From Candidatus Eiseniibacteriota bacterium (lineage in GTDB: Bacteria > Eisenbacteria > RBG-16-71-46 > JABDJR01 > JAWXBZ01): a stretch of 64,000 nucleotides of DNA. The DNA lies in contig JAWXBZ010000235.1 of NCBI GenBank assembly GCA_034440375.1, positions 32,788 to 96,787 on the forward strand, given 5' to 3'. Below the pieces are notes generated by a model. That model was not told where the DNA came from. It made no database searches and was given only the letters and a program-made list of their open reading frames with translations. Shown piece by piece: positions 16,819 to 56,456 of this stretch. How positions within the stretch are numbered: the stretch's first letter is position 1; each line of letters begins with the position of its first letter. The translations under genes and the position numbers were made by a program.

Positions 16819-16908
16819 GGAGGGGTGACCGAGCGGCTCAAGGTGGCACCCTGCTAAGGTGTTTATCGGGAAACTGATACGTGGGTTCGAATCCCACCCC
16901 CTCCGCCA
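16819..16908 (+). tRNA. tRNA-Ser(GCT)
   Basis: Cloverleaf, anticodon loop CTGCTAA, long variable arm, GGTTCGAATCC, encoded CCA. Confidence 0.95.
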
Positions 16909-34670: not shown

Positions 34671-35117
34671 TCAGATCCCCGACGGGGCACCTGTCTCGTC
34701 GGGCTCGACGTGGAAAGTCAGCGCCGCCCGTATGGCATCGGGTATCGGTACCGGCTTCATCGTTTCCTGCGACACCGAAACGTGGCGCACGGTCAGTACG
34801 GCGCGGAGATCGCCGTCCGGCCCCAGCAGACGGCAGCGGACGATGTAGGAGGTCGACTTGAGCTCCGTCAAGACGATTTCACCCGTGATGACCTCGCCGT
34901 GGCGCATCGGCCGGCGGTAGCGGCAGTGACTCTCGACGACCGGGATCAGGATCTCGCCATCCTGGATGACGCTCGAAATTGAAAAGCCGATCGACTCGAG
35001 GAAAGACTCGTACACGTCGTGCATCAGGACATAGTACCGGGCGAAGAAGACGATGCCGGCGGCGTCGACGTCGTGGATTCGAATCGGGAACTCGCGGCGA
35101 AAGATATTCGGGCTCAT
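34671..35117 (-). CDS. Hotdog-fold acyl-CoA thioesterase
   Basis: IRIHDVDAAGIVFFARY, IPVVESHCRYRRP, KPVPIPD. Confidence 0.88.
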   Translation of the reverse strand: MSPNIFRREFPIRIHDVDAAGIVFFARYYVLMHDVYESFLESIGFSISSVIQDGEILIPVVESHCRYRRPMRHGEVITGEIVLTELKSTSYIVRCRLLGPDGDLRAVLTVRHVSVSQETMKPVPIPDAIRAALTFHVEPDETGAPSGI

Positions 35118-35186
35118 GACACTGGCAATTTATCACCTTCGGCGCGATCGGGGTACCATGGGGAGTTGGATGATCGTTCGGAGGAC

Positions 35187-36269
35187 ATGGATTTGACGGC
35201 GGACAACGCGCAACGCGATGTTCACGCCACCGACGTCCTCATCGTCGGCGCCGGCCCGATCGGGCTTGAACTGGCCGTGGCGCTCAAGGGAGCCGGCGTT
35301 CCGTACGTGCAGGTCGACGCCGCGTCGATCGGTCACACGATCACCGGCTATCCCCGGCAGGCCCGATTCTTCTCCTCACCCGAGCGGATCGCCATTGCCG
35401 GCGTGCCGCTGGTCACCGTCGACCAATCGAAAACCAGCCGCGAGGAATACCTGGCCTACCTCCGCGGTGTCGTGGACCAGTTCAATCTGGATGTGCGGAC
35501 ATTCGAGCGGGTCGTCGAGATACGGGTCGGCGCCGAGGGGCCGGGAAGATTTCGCGTGACGACACAATCGTCCGGTGGGACGCAACGCTACGAGGCGCGC
35601 CGGGTCGTCCTGGCCATCGGCGACATGGCCGACACGCGGCGCCTCGATATACCGGGTGAGGACCTGCCGCATGTCAGCCACCTGTTCGACGAGCCGCATC
35701 GCTACTTTCGCCGGCGACTGCTCATCGTGGGAGGCAAGAACTCGGCGGTGGAAGCTGCCATTCGATGCCATCGGGCCGGCGCGCGCGTCAGCCTGAGCTA
35801 CCGGGGCGAGCGATTCCCCGAGAAGTCGGTCAAGTACTGGCTGCTGCCGGAGATCGAATCGTTTGTTGCGCAGGGGCACATCAAGTTTCTGCCGCGGACC
35901 GTGCCGGTGGTCATCGATGCCACGAAAGTGAGCCTGTCACGCCTCGATGAGCCGGCCGGCTCGGATCTCCTGCAAGTCCCGGCCGATTTCGTTCTGCTGC
36001 TCGTCGGTTATCGCGCCGACACGACGCTGTTCGAGATGGCCGGCGTGACGCTGGAGGGGGAGAACCGTGGCCCCCGGCACGACCCGGCCACGATGGAAAC
36101 CGATGTGCCGGGGTTGTACGTCGCCGGGACGGCCGCCGCCGGCACGCAGCACCATTTCAAGCTGTTCATCGAGAACAGCCACGTGCATGTGGATCGGATC
36201 TTGTCCCATTTGACGGGACGCCCGCTGCCAACGCGCGTTGCCAGGGGATTCAGCCTCCCCGAGAGTTAG
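35187..36269 (+). CDS. YpdA-like FAD/NAD(P)H disulfide oxidoreductase
   Basis: IVGAGPIG, FFSSPERIAI, REEYLAY, IPGEDLPHVSH, GGKNSA, KYWLLP, FIENS. Confidence 0.82.
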   Translation: MDLTADNAQRDVHATDVLIVGAGPIGLELAVALKGAGVPYVQVDAASIGHTITGYPRQARFFSSPERIAIAGVPLVTVDQSKTSREEYLAYLRGVVDQFNLDVRTFERVVEIRVGAEGPGRFRVTTQSSGGTQRYEARRVVLAIGDMADTRRLDIPGEDLPHVSHLFDEPHRYFRRRLLIVGGKNSAVEAAIRCHRAGARVSLSYRGERFPEKSVKYWLLPEIESFVAQGHIKFLPRTVPVVIDATKVSLSRLDEPAGSDLLQVPADFVLLLVGYRADTTLFEMAGVTLEGENRGPRHDPATMETDVPGLYVAGTAAAGTQHHFKLFIENSHVHVDRILSHLTGRPLPTRVARGFSLPES

Positions 36270-36312
36270 GCTTTCACGGTGCCAAACATCGACAAAGGCT
36301 CCCGGCGCCGCC

Positions 36313-37740
36313 TCACGTCTTCGGAATGGCTTCGAGCTTCTTCTTGAAGTTGGCGATGGCCCGCGGCGACCGCTGCGATTCCGGCATCGCCTCGGCGACC
36401 TGGATCGCTTTCTCCAGTGTCGCGCGGGCGTTCGCATTGTCGCCCATCGCCATCTGAATGTCCGCCCGAACGTCGAGCACGCGGAGCTGACGCGGGCCAT
36501 AAACCAGGTCCAGCGCGCGCGAGTTCGCCTCGAGTGCCTTCGGGTAATCCTTCATCGCCTTGTAAGCCGCGGCGAGACGAGCCGGCGGATTGTAATCGGC
36601 CGGAAGATCCCTCTCCGCCTGGAGCAGGAAGGTTACGGCCTTGGCGGGTTCATTCAACTCGAGATAGGCCGATAGCCGGTGCGAATCGAAGACGGCGCGC
36701 GCCTCCGGCGTCGGCGCCCGCTTCGCTTCCTTGTCGAGGAAGTTGGCCCACTCACGCGTCAGCGCCAGCGCGCCGAGCGAATCGCCCAGGGCTTCACGGG
36801 CACCGATCAACGTGATGTAGATGCCGGACCGATCGTCGCCGGTGGCCGGAATGGTCGCATCGTTCAGGACTTTGCGCGAGGCGGCCTCAAACTCGGCCAC
36901 GCGCTGCTTCCTCCCCTCGGCGTCGTCCGGCAGGTGGGCGGCCGCGTCCAGGCCGCTCGTGGCCACCGCCGCCGCCGAGGAGCCGTTGCCAAGCCGGGGC
37001 CACGCCTCGGTGGCCAGCTTCAGGATCGCCTGGTTGTCGCCGGTGTTCGACAGGCTGAACAGGGCCGACTCGACCGCGCGGCCGTAGGAGGCCCAGTCGT
37101 CCGGCGCCATGTCGATGGCCGTCCGGTAGACCACTGCGGCCATGGAATCCTGCTCGGCGGCATAGTAACGGTCGGCCCGCGCCAGAAGATCCGCCAGGAG
37201 GAGATCGTTGGCGCCACCAGAGCCTCCGGAAGTATTTTCCCTCTTGTCCGGATGAATTCCGGCCCACACCTGGGCTGGGTCGCCTCCCAGAAGCCCCGGG
37301 TTGGCCCAGGCGTTTTCGACGAGGCGGTGCCCGTCATTCAGAATTCGCTTGAGGCCGGGAACCGTGGCTCCGCCAACCCAGCGAAGTGCGATGCGCTCGC
37401 TATCCGGTTCGACGATGAAATAGGTCGGCAGGGCTCGAAGCGGATACTTCTCGAGCACGTACGCGTTCTCGGGGCGGTCGGTGTCGATCTCGAGCCAGAC
37501 GAACCGTCCGGCTTCGCTCGCGAGGGCGGGGTCGGTGAAGACCACGGCTCTCATCGAGCGGCACGAGTGTCACCAGGGTGCCCAGGCTTCGATGAAGATC
37601 GGAAGCCGTTTCTCGCGGGCTTGTGTCAACGCAATCTTGTAATCGTCGACGAAGGGGAGAACCGGGCCGGCGCTGGCTACCGTCACAGCGGCCATCGACA
37701 GCACGACATGGGCCACGAGGGCCAGGCGCAGGTGTTTCAT
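36313..37740 (-). CDS. Exported thioredoxin-fold + TPR protein, candidate selenoprotein (UxxC)
   Basis: ATG 37740 is in frame with the 413-aa ORF through one TGA (37572-37570): signal peptide, LPFVDDYKIALTQAREKRLPIFIEAWAPW-U-HSCRSM, cis-Pro ALPT, TPR tail. Confidence 0.82.
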
Positions 37741-37820
37741 GCCGTCATGCTACCAGACACGGAGTTCGAAAGTCAGCCGCCACTGGACGCCGGAAGCCAC
37801 AACGGTTACAACTTGCCGCC

Positions 37821-40469
37821 ATGAGCCTGGCCGCCGGGACCCGCCTGGGTCCCTACGAAATTGCCTCCCCCCTCGGCGTCGGGGGAATGGGCGAAGTGTA
37901 TCGAGCCCGCGACACCCGCCTTGGCCGCGATGTGGCCATCAAGGTCCTTCCGCCTCATCTGGCAGATTCGGCTGACAGCCGGGCCCGCTTCGAGCGGGAA
38001 GCGAAGGCCATCTCCAGCCTGAACCACCCCCACATCTGCACACTTTTTGATGTCGGCCGTGAGGGGGAGACCGACTACCTCGTCATGGAGCTCGTCGAGG
38101 GGGAGACACTGCAAAAGCGCCTGGAGCGTGGGCCCCTGCCGACCGACGAGGTGCTGAAGCTTGGCATGCAGATCGCAGATGCCCTCGACAAGGCGCACCG
38201 GCAGAACATGGTTCACCGCGATCTGAAGCCGGCCAACGTCATGCTGACCCGGACCGGCGCCAAGCTCCTGGACTTCGGCCTGGCTCGCGCCACCGGCCTC
38301 GCCGGAAACGTCAGCGAGCTGACCAGTTCGCCCACGATGACCCGGGCGTTGACCACCGAGGGGACCATCGTCGGTACGTTTCAGTACATGTCGCCGGAAC
38401 AGCTGGAGGGGCAGGAAGCCGACGCCCGCAGCGACATCTGGGCTCTCGGTGTGACCTTGTACGAAGCGGTGACCGGCAAGCGCGCCTTCGAGGGACGAAG
38501 CCAGGCCTCGCTGATCGGCTCGATCATGAACACCGAGCCGAGTCCGGTCACCAGCGTAGCCACACTGGCGCCGCCGACGCTGGAACGATTGATTCGCGGG
38601 TGCATGACCAAGGATCCCGACGAGCGGATTCAGACGGCTCATGACGTCAAGCTGCAGCTCCAGTGGATACAGGAAGGCGGGTCGCAGGCCGGCATTCCGC
38701 TACCGGTGGCGGCGCGCCGGCGTTCCCGCGAGCGGGTGCTGGTGATCGCCACGGTCGTATCGGCCCTGGCGACGGCGGTGCTGGCGGCCAAGATGATGCT
38801 GACGCAGGAACCCGAGTCTCCGGTGTACCGCTTCGAAATTCCGCCACCGTCCGGCATCCGGTTCATGGATGCGCCCCGCATTTCCCCCGACGGAAGGATG
38901 ATCGCCTACAACGCCACCGACTCCGTCGGTGTGTCGCGCATCTATCTGCGCCCGCTCGATGCGCTGGTGGCCCGGCCGCTCGGCGGCACCGAGGGGACGC
39001 TGCGCCCCTTCTGGTCGCCGGACAGCCGCTTCCTCGGATTCATGGCCGGCGGCAAGTTGAAGAAGGTGGAAGTGACCGGAGCCCCGCCCATCGTGGTCTG
39101 TGATGCCCCGACCGGGGCGGACGGCTCCTGGGGCGTGAAGGGGGACATTCTCTTCGACGGCCGCGCGGACGATCCGATCCGGCAGGTCTCTTCCGGAGGT
39201 GGCGTGCCGGTCCTGGCGGTCGGTCGGGATACGGTCAAGAATGTCACCCAGGTCGGCTGGCCGGAATTTCTTCCGGACGGGCGTCACTATCTCTTCCTGG
39301 CCATCGGCGCGAATTCGCGGCTGGCGGTCGGCGAGCTGGGCTCCACGAAGATCGTCGATCTCGGTCCCTGCGATTCCCAGATCAAGTTCGTGCCGCCGGG
39401 ACACATCCTGTTTTCCCGGGGCGGCACGCTGGTGGCCCAGCGGTTCGATGCCGGGTCGCTCAAGTTTCGGGGTGATCCGGTGCCGATCGCCGAGAAGGTG
39501 TCGACCGACGCCATCGGAACCTCCGAGTTTCATGCCTCCGACAACGGCATCCTGGTTTTCTCGACCCGGCGCGCCCAGCGGGGGCGACTGGTGCGCCTCG
39601 ACCGCGAGGGGCGCGAACTGGGCGTGGTCAACGCCCCGGCCTCGGGCTTTCATCCGGCCCTCTCGCCGGACGGGCGCCGCCTGGTGTTTCGAGCCGTCGA
39701 TGACGTCTCGCGCAGCCGTGATCTCTGGCTGGTCGACCTGGTCCGCGATGTCGCGACCCGATTCAGCCATGACGTCGGCAATGAGAATTACCCGGTCTGG
39801 TCGCCGGACGGCCGCAAGGTCATTTATTACTCCGATGGAGTCGGATCGGCGGGCCTGTATCGGAAGGACGTGACCGGTGCCGGCAAGAGCGAGATGATTT
39901 ATCCCTTTTCGACCAGCGAATGTATCCCGACCTGTTGGTCCGCCGATGGCCGGCTGCTCTTCTTCGACCGCGCCGGCGTCGAGGGGCGCAGGGATATCTA
40001 CGTGCTCGACTTGACCCGCCCTGGCTCCGAGCCGACGGCGTTCCTGGATGCGCCCTTTGATGAATGGCAGTCCACGCTTTCGCCCGATGGCCGCTACCTG
40101 GCCTATACCTCGTTCGAATCGGGGCGCAACGAGGTGTACGTGCAATCGTATCCGGACCGCGCGGACAAGTGGCAGGTTTCGACCCACGGCGGCAATGAAC
40201 CGACCTGGAGTGCCGATGGCCGCCAGCTCTATTACCTGTCGGCGGAGCAGAACATGATGTCGGTGTCGACCGGCAATGGCCAGGGGTTCGAACCCGGCGT
40301 GGCCGAGCGGCTCTTCGCGGCCGTCGTGCTGCAGGCAGACGGGCCTCGCGTCCACTACGTCGTCACGCCCGACGGTGGGACGTTTTACATCGTGGCCCCG
40401 GGCAGCTCCCAGGCATTGCCGAGCACCTACGTGGTCGTGAACTGGTCGAAGGCGTTTCAGCAATCCTGA
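37821..40469 (+). CDS. Ser/Thr protein kinase with TolB-like beta-propeller
   Basis: GVGGMGEVY, VAIK, HRDLKPAN, DFGLA, YMSPE, TM, repeated WSPDG. Confidence 0.95.
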   Translation: MSLAAGTRLGPYEIASPLGVGGMGEVYRARDTRLGRDVAIKVLPPHLADSADSRARFEREAKAISSLNHPHICTLFDVGREGETDYLVMELVEGETLQKRLERGPLPTDEVLKLGMQIADALDKAHRQNMVHRDLKPANVMLTRTGAKLLDFGLARATGLAGNVSELTSSPTMTRALTTEGTIVGTFQYMSPEQLEGQEADARSDIWALGVTLYEAVTGKRAFEGRSQASLIGSIMNTEPSPVTSVATLAPPTLERLIRGCMTKDPDERIQTAHDVKLQLQWIQEGGSQAGIPLPVAARRRSRERVLVIATVVSALATAVLAAKMMLTQEPESPVYRFEIPPPSGIRFMDAPRISPDGRMIAYNATDSVGVSRIYLRPLDALVARPLGGTEGTLRPFWSPDSRFLGFMAGGKLKKVEVTGAPPIVVCDAPTGADGSWGVKGDILFDGRADDPIRQVSSGGGVPVLAVGRDTVKNVTQVGWPEFLPDGRHYLFLAIGANSRLAVGELGSTKIVDLGPCDSQIKFVPPGHILFSRGGTLVAQRFDAGSLKFRGDPVPIAEKVSTDAIGTSEFHASDNGILVFSTRRAQRGRLVRLDREGRELGVVNAPASGFHPALSPDGRRLVFRAVDDVSRSRDLWLVDLVRDVATRFSHDVGNENYPVWSPDGRKVIYYSDGVGSAGLYRKDVTGAGKSEMIYPFSTSECIPTCWSADGRLLFFDRAGVEGRRDIYVLDLTRPGSEPTAFLDAPFDEWQSTLSPDGRYLAYTSFESGRNEVYVQSYPDRADKWQVSTHGGNEPTWSADGRQLYYLSAEQNMMSVSTGNGQGFEPGVAERLFAAVVLQADGPRVHYVVTPDGGTFYIVAPGSSQALPSTYVVVNWSKAFQQS

Positions 40470-56210: not shown

Positions 56211-56302
<92 letters not shown>

Positions 56303-56366: not shown

Positions 56367-56456
56367 GGAGAGGTGTCCGAGTGGCTCAAGGAGCACGCTT
56401 GGAAAGCGTGTATACGGGTAACCGTATCGAGGGTTCGAATCCCTCTCTCTCCGCCA
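56367..56456 (+). tRNA. tRNA-Ser(GGA)
   Basis: Anticodon loop TTGGAAA, long variable arm, CCA. Confidence 0.95.

Follow-up and report, generated by a model that had tools for sequence, protein, structure and literature searches.

The stretch of DNA analysed here, a window of 64,000 nucleotides from a genome of Candidatus Eiseniibacteriota (GCA_034440375.1, contig JAWXBZ010000235.1), raises the question of whether a TGA triplet inside a long minus-strand reading frame is a stop codon or a selenocysteine (Sec) codon and, if the latter, which RNA structure would direct its recoding. Starting from ATG 37740, this frame runs for 475 codons and ends at TGA 36315-36313, with TGA 37572-37570 at codon 57 (context EAWAPW-TGA-HSC) as its sole in-frame break, sitting exactly at the place of the first Cys of the CxxC motif in WAPW-x-HSC. 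The evidence set out below indicates that the locus is very probably a genuine, unannotated selenoprotein gene.

The open reading frame (ORF) that is usually called has 413 amino acids (aa) and starts at an internal Met (ATG 37554), and ATG 37740 lies in frame 62 codons upstream. The original prediction had proposed this extension with coordinates that turned out to be exact, naming the TGA as the only interruption, at the first Cys of CxxC, and taking the added N-terminus for a signal peptide followed by the start of a thioredoxin domain; the frame as read agrees with all of this, the addition covering a signal-peptide-like stretch and the first half of the domain (Pfam PF13899, residues 32-112). 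The predicted protein-level features are as follows.

36316..37740, minus strand: full coding sequence of the predicted selenoprotein, Sec at codon 57, the frame being kept on either side of the TGA in orthologues
37669..37740, minus strand: predicted Sec-type (export) signal peptide, residues 1-24 (...VASA/G cleavage), with a basic N-terminus, hydrophobic core and A-x-A, read from the sequence
37405..37647, minus strand: Thioredoxin_7 domain, residues 32-112, putative active site W-U-H-S-C (PF13899, 36.8 bits)
37570..37572, minus strand: UGA codon 57, assigned as selenocysteine from Sec/Cys pairing, sel genes and independent contigs
36316..37218, minus strand: tetratricopeptide repeat (TPR)-like helical C-terminal domain, about residues 175-475, with Pfam TPR matches and the invariant motifs DDRSG, FDSHR, DYNPPARLA, YGPR and GQRS

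Full-length Cys homologues of about 435-515 aa in the protein database align end to end with the read-through protein, thioredoxin domains included. The database also holds the 413-aa form and many relatives' forms of about 377-420 aa (query cover 86-87%), which are short because their calls start after the TGA. As far as sequence comparison can tell, this is a selenoprotein gene shortened by gene callers at the UGA, the truncation that had been foreseen for it, and the predicted exported thioredoxin-TPR protein with a UxxC site does lie in one frame, with conserved flanks and both PF13899 and TPR matches.

Orthologues were found in 61 related genomes, and the 21 loci fetched carried TGA (17) or TGT/TGC (4) at codon 57 within conserved flanks. 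A scan of relatives with one genome per species found 534, the best 80 of which were kept and joined to the first 21, giving 101 loci; the motif was present in 100, with TGA in 81, TGC in 18 and TGT in 1, so that homologues with a conserved TGA (81) or a Cys codon (19) at this place, which the original prediction had proposed to look for, are both at hand. After removal of identical 180-nt segments, 74 Sec forms and 18 Cys forms remained for comparison. One Cys-form locus (L035) and one locus of the second gene described below (L156) come from an unpublished genome (G054); they are in the counts, and no conclusion rests on them.

The triplet itself, whose confirmation had also been called for, recurs in independent contigs. 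A contig of run X4, possibly from the same sampling campaign, shows 0 differences over 37300-37800 with the TGA present, and record 8 of X7, a diverged relative from another study, shows 10 differences within 37493-37603 but leaves 37570-37572 unchanged; run X5 had no cover at 37572-37588. The TGA is not a sequencing error. Gene callers and public annotation do treat it as a stop, and no RNA sequencing run is listed with the stretch, which would suit a true stop in a split or decaying gene, or a misread base, with just the 413-aa ORF or nothing being made. We regard this as extremely improbable given that, besides the independent contigs, 81 of 100 loci, from several phyla, share the TGA with conserved residues on either side, that the 413-aa ORF would be without both signal peptide and active site, and that the RNA downstream of the TGA shows Sec-specific selection in a genome with the full Sec machinery.

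That machinery was another point on which the original prediction had asked for a search, having noted that the window holds no sel genes. It is indeed encoded elsewhere in the source genome, a metagenome-assembled genome of 264 contigs that is 93.7% complete: profile searches found selA (498.5 bits), selB (331.9 bits) and selD (336.6 bits, split between two contig ends), and contig C64 carries a tRNA-Sec that scores 68.6 bits against the tRNA-Sec model and is assigned as SeC, anticodon TCA, by ARAGORN, all four being above their cut-offs. The selD pieces lie at G000:C122:58742-59509 (model positions 58-310) and G000:C66:7641-7898 (positions 1-89); no in-frame stop was seen in the N-terminal piece, and SelD is thus apparently no selenoprotein here. 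Within the window, three genes at 16819-16908, 56211-56300 and 56367-56456 give weak-to-borderline matches to the tRNA-Sec model (38-47 bits) and are typed as tRNA-Ser by ARAGORN.

The UGA might instead be read as another residue than Sec, Cys or Trp for example, through a change of code or a non-canonical tRNA, and the available text of PMC13582414 cites a report in which a non-canonical tRNA-Cys with SelB was able to recode such a UGA as Cys. Here, however, the gene itself ends in TGA, which means that the code has not been globally reassigned, and the genome has selA, selD and a tRNA with a UCA anticodon typed SeC by ARAGORN; a non-Sec reading is in our view hardly credible. We conclude that the UGA at 37572-37570 almost certainly encodes selenocysteine.

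Which structure would then serve as the Sec insertion sequence (SECIS)? In what follows, columns are counted from the T of the TGA, so that a window coordinate equals 37573 minus the column. When all column pairs able to pair in at least 85% of Sec forms were sought, one helix separated Sec from Cys forms, namely columns 61-67 with 73-79 around a loop at 68-72.

37494..37512, minus strand: hairpin 2, GCCGGAC-GGUUC-GUCUGGC, 7 bp, extendable to 9 bp over 37513-37493, the proposed SelB-binding SECIS, with Sec-specific pairing and synonymous constraint

Hairpin 2 starts 57 nt past the UGA, with 64 nt between UGA and loop. Its columns pair in 99-100% of Sec forms, and all seven pairs are present in 73 of 74, whereas 17 of the 18 Cys forms keep just 3-6 of the seven; the exception, L093, stands beside Sec forms on short branches of the tree. 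Mean pair probability was 0.976 in Sec forms versus 0.068 in Cys forms. Against 100 synonymous shuffles the mean z was -2.20 for Sec and -0.27 for Cys forms, and -2.67 for the gene of the window, in which the hairpin has 7-9 bp, a loop GGUUC or GUU and -12.2 to -13.4 kcal/mol.

Given that the hairpin spans codons for A-G-R/Q-F-V-W-L, its conservation could be read at the codon level against codon usage in the rest of these same genes. Four synonymous positions are fixed in all 74 Sec forms and relaxed in the 18 Cys forms. At the Ala codon (columns 61-63), the third base in Sec forms is C in 73 and U in 1, never G (GCC 72, GCU 1, and one ACC for Thr), compared with GCG in 10 and GCC in 7 Cys forms and a background of 52% GCG and 39% GCC. 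The Gly codon (columns 64-66) is GGA in 51, GGG in 22 and AGG in 1 Sec form, and GGC, the background's commonest choice here at 54%, occurs in none; in Cys forms the residue is variable, being GGC (3), GGA (2) or GGG (1) where it is Gly. The A-G dipeptide is itself conserved in Sec forms only. At the Arg/Gln codon (columns 67-69) Sec forms use solely CGG (43) or CAG (31), which makes the loop G invariant, against a background of 56% CGC and 25% CGG, and Cys forms use CGC, CGA, CGU and others too. Finally, the Val codon (columns 73-75) ends in C in 74 of 74 Sec forms, while Cys forms have GUG (11), GUC (6) and GUA (1) and the background is 50% GTC and 42% GTG.

The Cys forms are scattered over a quick maximum-likelihood tree built from the 92 proteins, where the Cys label requires 13 changes, at least 11 of them forced by well-supported branches. 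These forced switches mean that the Sec/Cys contrast is not one clade set against another. Three Sec-form copies with the labels Udaeobacter (L053), Terriglobales (L064) and Saccharimonadales (L113) fall among the Eisenbacteria copies on this tree, a placement that may come from mis-binned contigs or from gene transfer.

Judged from this pattern of pairing and codon choice, the distal hairpin 2 is a likely recoding signal. The stretch 37477-37512, comprising hairpin 2 and the codons after it, is the sole 35-nt match of several otherwise unlike contigs in two sediment runs, and seems to be the most conserved DNA stretch among relatives of the gene. An Rfam search of 37300-37800 gave a chance match to a long non-coding RNA only (E = 2.9).

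The original prediction had pointed to another structure, much nearer to the UGA, as the SECIS.

37547..37559, minus strand: small hairpin GCUC-GAUGA-GAGC, present, overlapping the 5' arm of hairpin 1

This small hairpin exists where it had been placed (37559-37547), with the G-initial loop and the closeness to UGA of textbook bacterial SECIS elements, and at least three of its four pairs can form in 71 of 74 Sec forms. Pairing is alike in Cys forms, however, with three or four pairs in 14 of 18; all four pairs occur in 39 of 74 Sec versus 4 of 18 Cys forms. Its sequence codes for the conserved residues R-S-M-x-A, no compensatory change was found at any pair among 17 Sec forms (RNAalifold), and it competes with the larger hairpin described below. 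In the published bacterial SECIS (bSECIS) model, the apical loop has 3-9 nt, the upper stem 4-16 bp, a G stands in the first two loop positions, the minimum free energy (MFE) is <= -7.5 kcal/mol, and 16-37 nt separate UGA and loop (PMC13188914). The loop of the small hairpin begins 14 nt past the UGA, under that range. By these comparisons, the coding sequence by itself accounts for the small hairpin, whose proposed role as the SECIS was not upheld.

Another hairpin within 16-37 nt might instead do the work, with the distal one being conserved for some other reason. Applying our own version of the model's criteria, we found some such hairpin in 50 of the 74 Sec and 8 of the 18 Cys forms. No conserved one emerged at this distance, however: the commonest qualifying hairpin occurs in just 19 of the 74 Sec forms, and the gene of the window has none. 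Hairpin 2, by contrast, falls within the model for loop size, stem, loop G and MFE in 74 of 74 Sec forms and departs from it in spacing (64 nt). Since the small hairpin is also unlike the SECIS of the genome's other selenoprotein gene, which hairpin 2 resembles, we consider a working SECIS in the proximal hairpin, or in any other at 16-37 nt, highly improbable.

That other gene serves as an internal control. Searching with Pfam AhpC-TSA brought up, outside the window, a second gene interrupted by one in-frame TGA (G000:C7:21501-22373; L154:202-1074), unannotated and encoding an exported peroxiredoxin (Prx)/TlpA-like protein with the motif GYN-U-PFC. Its hairpin, CGCGGAC-GGUCC-GUCCGUG, has 18 nt from UGA to loop. 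Relatives of this gene carry one TGA in 13 of the 18 places listed, and GAC-GGUCC-GUC recurs at 18 nt in 7 of the 10 Sec-form relatives that were resolved by script. The upper stem and loop of hairpin 2, GAC-GGUUC-GUC, are near-identical to it and displaced by 46 nt (64 versus 18 nt). Scanning the genome for this loop type behind an open in-frame TGA gave 10 matches, with only the Prx-like and thioredoxin-TPR genes credible, and these were the only two selenoprotein genes found in the genome. No FdhA-type match (TIGR01553) rose above the cut-off and no other Thioredoxin_7 paralogue of the genome had a TGA. A broader genome-wide scan for TGA with open flanks and high third-position G+C content (GC3) yielded 680 candidates, mostly spurious frames, missed the thioredoxin-TPR gene and was dropped.

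As far as the available text of PMC8659212 goes, the SECIS of Escherichia coli fdhF is built like that of the Prx-like gene, a 17-nt hairpin 11 nt from the UGA with G23 and U24 as its key loop residues. Hairpin 2 shares with fdhF and the bSECIS model a stem of 7-9 bp, a loop of 3-5 nt starting with G and then U or G, and about -10 kcal/mol. It differs from both in its 64-nt distance and in the separately selected hairpin of 44-52 nt that precedes it. In the gene of the window, that inserted element and its surroundings fold as follows.

37515..37560, minus strand: hairpin 1, a 46-nt stem-loop at columns 13-58 with apical GGUC-UUCACC-GACC, found in the gene's own fold and with Sec-specific stability
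37489..37567, minus strand: short closing helix of columns 6-9 with 81-84, giving a Y-shaped three-way junction, shown in this gene only, in a fold of 85 nt

Over these 85 nt from the UGA, the gene's own Y-shaped fold reaches -41.0 kcal/mol (z = -3.05; 1 of 200 shuffles as good). Columns 4-60 form one closed domain, starting at 9-14 and ending at 56-60, in 74 of 74 Sec forms, which is not the rule in Cys forms, and the mean MFE of these columns is -26.8 kcal/mol in the 74 Sec versus -17.4 kcal/mol in the 18 Cys forms. Against 100 synonymous shuffles, hairpin 1 has a mean z of -2.48 in Sec forms (73% below -2) and -0.06 in Cys forms (none below -2). The MFE fold contains both hairpins in 73 of 74 Sec forms versus 1 of 18 Cys forms. 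When columns 4-12 were held single-stranded, as they would be by the ribosome, 10-13 unpaired nt were left before hairpin 2 in 60 of 74 Sec forms, and 11 in the gene of the window.

SelB could in principle bind the apical part of hairpin 1 itself, whose loop UUCACC lies 30 nt past the UGA and thus inside 16-37 nt, with hairpin 2 as an accessory or stabilising element; hairpin 1 is stabilised Sec-specifically, and 89-100% of Sec forms preserve its apical GUC/GAC pairs. Yet the sequence of the apical stem and loop codes for the conserved V-F-T-D, and Cys forms pair there to the same extent (72-100%); the first two loop positions, moreover, are without the G that the published model requires. Given in addition that the Sec-specific synonymous constraints lie in hairpin 2, and that the likeness to the clade's canonical SECIS motif is found in hairpin 2 and not at the tip of hairpin 1, we rate binding of SelB to hairpin 1 as improbable.

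The preferred explanation is that the UGA would be recoded by the genome's own SelA, SelB, SelD and tRNA-Sec through a two-part signal comprising hairpin 1 and the SelB-type hairpin 2. SelB would bind hairpin 2, and hairpin 1 would loop out a coding stretch under strong constraint, that of the active-site helix (U-H-T/S-C-R-S-M-R-A-F-V-F-T-D), bringing hairpin 2 to about 11 unpaired nt from the UGA, as in the Prx-like gene and in E. coli fdhF. We consider it likely that this explanation as a whole, an exported Sec protein with a two-part recoding signal and a distal SelB hairpin, is the best one; for hairpin 1 as a looped-out spacer in particular, our confidence is only slightly better than even. 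Structures 5-9 nt past the A-site codon stand at the mRNA entrance of the ribosome, and hairpin 1 might slow the ribosome at the UGA as well.

Several points weigh against this explanation. The 64-nt spacing violates the published 16-37 nt, and no described bacterial precedent was found in the literature searched; the qualifying hairpins at 16-37 nt in 50 Sec forms, given above, count on the same side. The compared sequences are related and the tree is a quick one, so Mann-Whitney p-values overstate the Sec/Cys contrast. The gene's own hairpin 1 only weakly beats its synonymous shuffles (z = -1.31; 11 of 100 as good), and its RNAalifold consensus over 17 Sec forms is near-empty (-1.6 kcal/mol) because the register shifts between sequences, which is why per-sequence folds and codon-level tests were used. 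In unconstrained folds the unpaired linker ranges between 5 and 15 nt, and these folds therefore do not establish a fixed effective spacing. At the protein level, function is read from domain likeness alone, with no conserved neighbour to add to it.

What would the protein do? Its match to PF13899 (36.8 bits, cut-off 27) is shared by 23 of 23 family members, and PF13098, at 23.3 bits below its cut-off of 27 for this protein, is matched by 20 of 23 relatives at E <= 0.001, the matches overlapping with those of the same clan. A comparable signal-type N-terminus is present in all 22 full-length homologues of alignment A2. The solved chains closest to the thioredoxin domain are 2kuc (E = 8e-16) and 2fwe, the DsbD C-terminal domain (E = 8.5e-10). 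TPR matches lie in the C-terminal third, the C-terminal 300 or so residues reading as a TPR solenoid with invariant polar motifs, and the ESM Atlas neighbours of the ordinary ORF are members of the same family and generic TPR look-alikes. No NCBIfam model rose above its cut-off for the protein: TsoB selenoprotein NF045694 scored 40.2 against 805 and DsbD NF001419 34.2 against 330, the match being limited in each case to the model's own C-terminal thioredoxin-like domain. Together these matches predict an exported protein of about 50 kDa in which a signal peptide is followed by a DsbD-gamma-like Thioredoxin_7 domain and then by about 300 residues of TPR solenoid. Between the two domains (about 37200-37320, residues ~140-180) it has an inserted Gly/Ser-rich linker of about 35 residues, which is missing in most A2 homologues; only a few, for example P0011, have something similar.

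From its domains, a periplasmic thiol-disulfide oxidoreductase appears a reasonably likely role. In such a role, the selenolate would attack substrate disulfides or oxidised cysteines held in the TPR groove, and the enzyme would most likely be a reductase or isomerase fed by a CcdA/DsbD-type membrane protein. The genome has a CcdA/DsbD_TM gene (G000:C227:1151-2414) adjoining an AhpC-TSA/TlpA-like gene, and together the two may form a periplasmic reducing pathway.

Gene context gives no clue to function, as every neighbouring ORF family is confined to 12 or fewer of the 92 loci. In the window, a Pyr_redox_3 flavoprotein gene (35019-36269, plus strand) converges with the 3' end, and a Ser/Thr kinase gene with PD40 beta-propeller repeats (37623-40469, plus strand) diverges at the 5' end; neither is a conserved neighbour at the other loci. 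The kinase ORF is called from a GTG, and its overlap with the 5' end of the selenoprotein gene is only nominal because a later start is likely. A scan of 36100-38000 found no promoter or terminator.

The composite pattern of W-UGA-H-x-C-R with the distal hairpin at a fixed distance was found in 72 of the 206 phylum genomes searched, among them 36 of the 121 of high quality, with 0 in the reversed control. Records named Thermoanaerobaculia or Acidobacteriota and Krumholzibacteriia contain Sec forms too. If our explanation is true, a widespread exported selenoprotein family (Eisenbacteria, Thermoanaerobaculia and other Acidobacteriota, Krumholzibacteria) is uncatalogued, adding a common exported selenoprotein to poorly known soil and sediment phyla. 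In hundreds of public genomes the gene is cut at the UGA, what is left being named a TPR or 'thioredoxin family' protein, so that active site and export signal are missing from the records. On the same condition, SelB recruitment would also tolerate large structured insertions. Genes of this sort would then systematically escape search windows of 40-60 nt and the 16-37 nt rule, and the distant hairpin may explain why SECIS-based searches have missed them. Having a similar SelB-type hairpin at 18 nt and at 64 nt in one genome offers a natural comparison in which the spacing dependence of SelB is testable.

Published catalogues give the frame for comparison. Table 1 of a 2026 review (PMC13188914) lists 119 selenoprotein families or subfamilies, with no PF13899 UxxC entry and no TPR-fused entry; the words TPR or tetratricopeptide occur in the main text of neither this review nor a 2022 review (PMC9312934), BSepDB (PMC13326102) or deep-Sep (PMC12013277). 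No literature naming both selenoprotein and Eisenbacteria was found, and the literature searched held neither this family nor a distant bacterial SECIS nor a SelB-type hairpin behind a spacer hairpin, although supplementary tables of surveys may list the family. Reviews, including PMC12013277 and PMC13188914, do state that some bacterial SECIS elements do not fit the model.

Among known proteins, the nearest in kind are the bacterial thioredoxin-fold UxxC selenoproteins (Sec-thioredoxin PF00085, 'thiol:disulfide interchange protein' PF13098, DsbA-like and others; PMC13188914), which share with the present protein the thioredoxin fold, the Sec at the N-terminal position of CxxC, the Cys homologues and the truncation by gene callers; PF00085 and PF13098 also give overlapping, weaker matches in it. 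It differs from them in that its best domain is Thioredoxin_7, PF13098 staying below the cut-off, and in being an exported protein of 475 residues with a conserved TPR domain and a putative SECIS beyond the canonical distance. The only listed selenoprotein family on a Thioredoxin_7 domain, the Trx7/PDZ (seleno)protein NF041199, is likewise fused to a protein-binding module; it has CxxU rather than UxxC and PDZ rather than TPR, its model scores 13.5 bits here against a cut-off of 300, and there is no PDZ match. The DsbD gamma domain and 2kuc, a 'putative disulphide-isomerase', are periplasmic redox domains of the Thioredoxin_7 type and the closest solved sequences. Compared with DsbD, however, the present protein is without the membrane and alpha domains, has Sec for Cys, and has gained a TPR domain.

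The 'chaperedoxin' CnoX/YbbN is a cytoplasmic protein with a thioredoxin domain and TPR. The domain order, an N-terminal thioredoxin fold and then TPR, is the same here, and some homologues are named 'thioredoxin-like negative regulator of GroEL' by JGI. The present protein differs by its Thioredoxin_7 domain, its Sec and its signal peptide, the last of which argues against the CnoX compartment, and no CnoX/YbbN chain is among the best 60 of 150 PDB matches. Taken together, these comparisons suggest that the protein would therefore be a new family of a well-known selenoprotein kind; we also lean, by a little, towards the view that this family has a distinct class of bacterial SECIS, in which distance is set by RNA structure and not by linear spacing.

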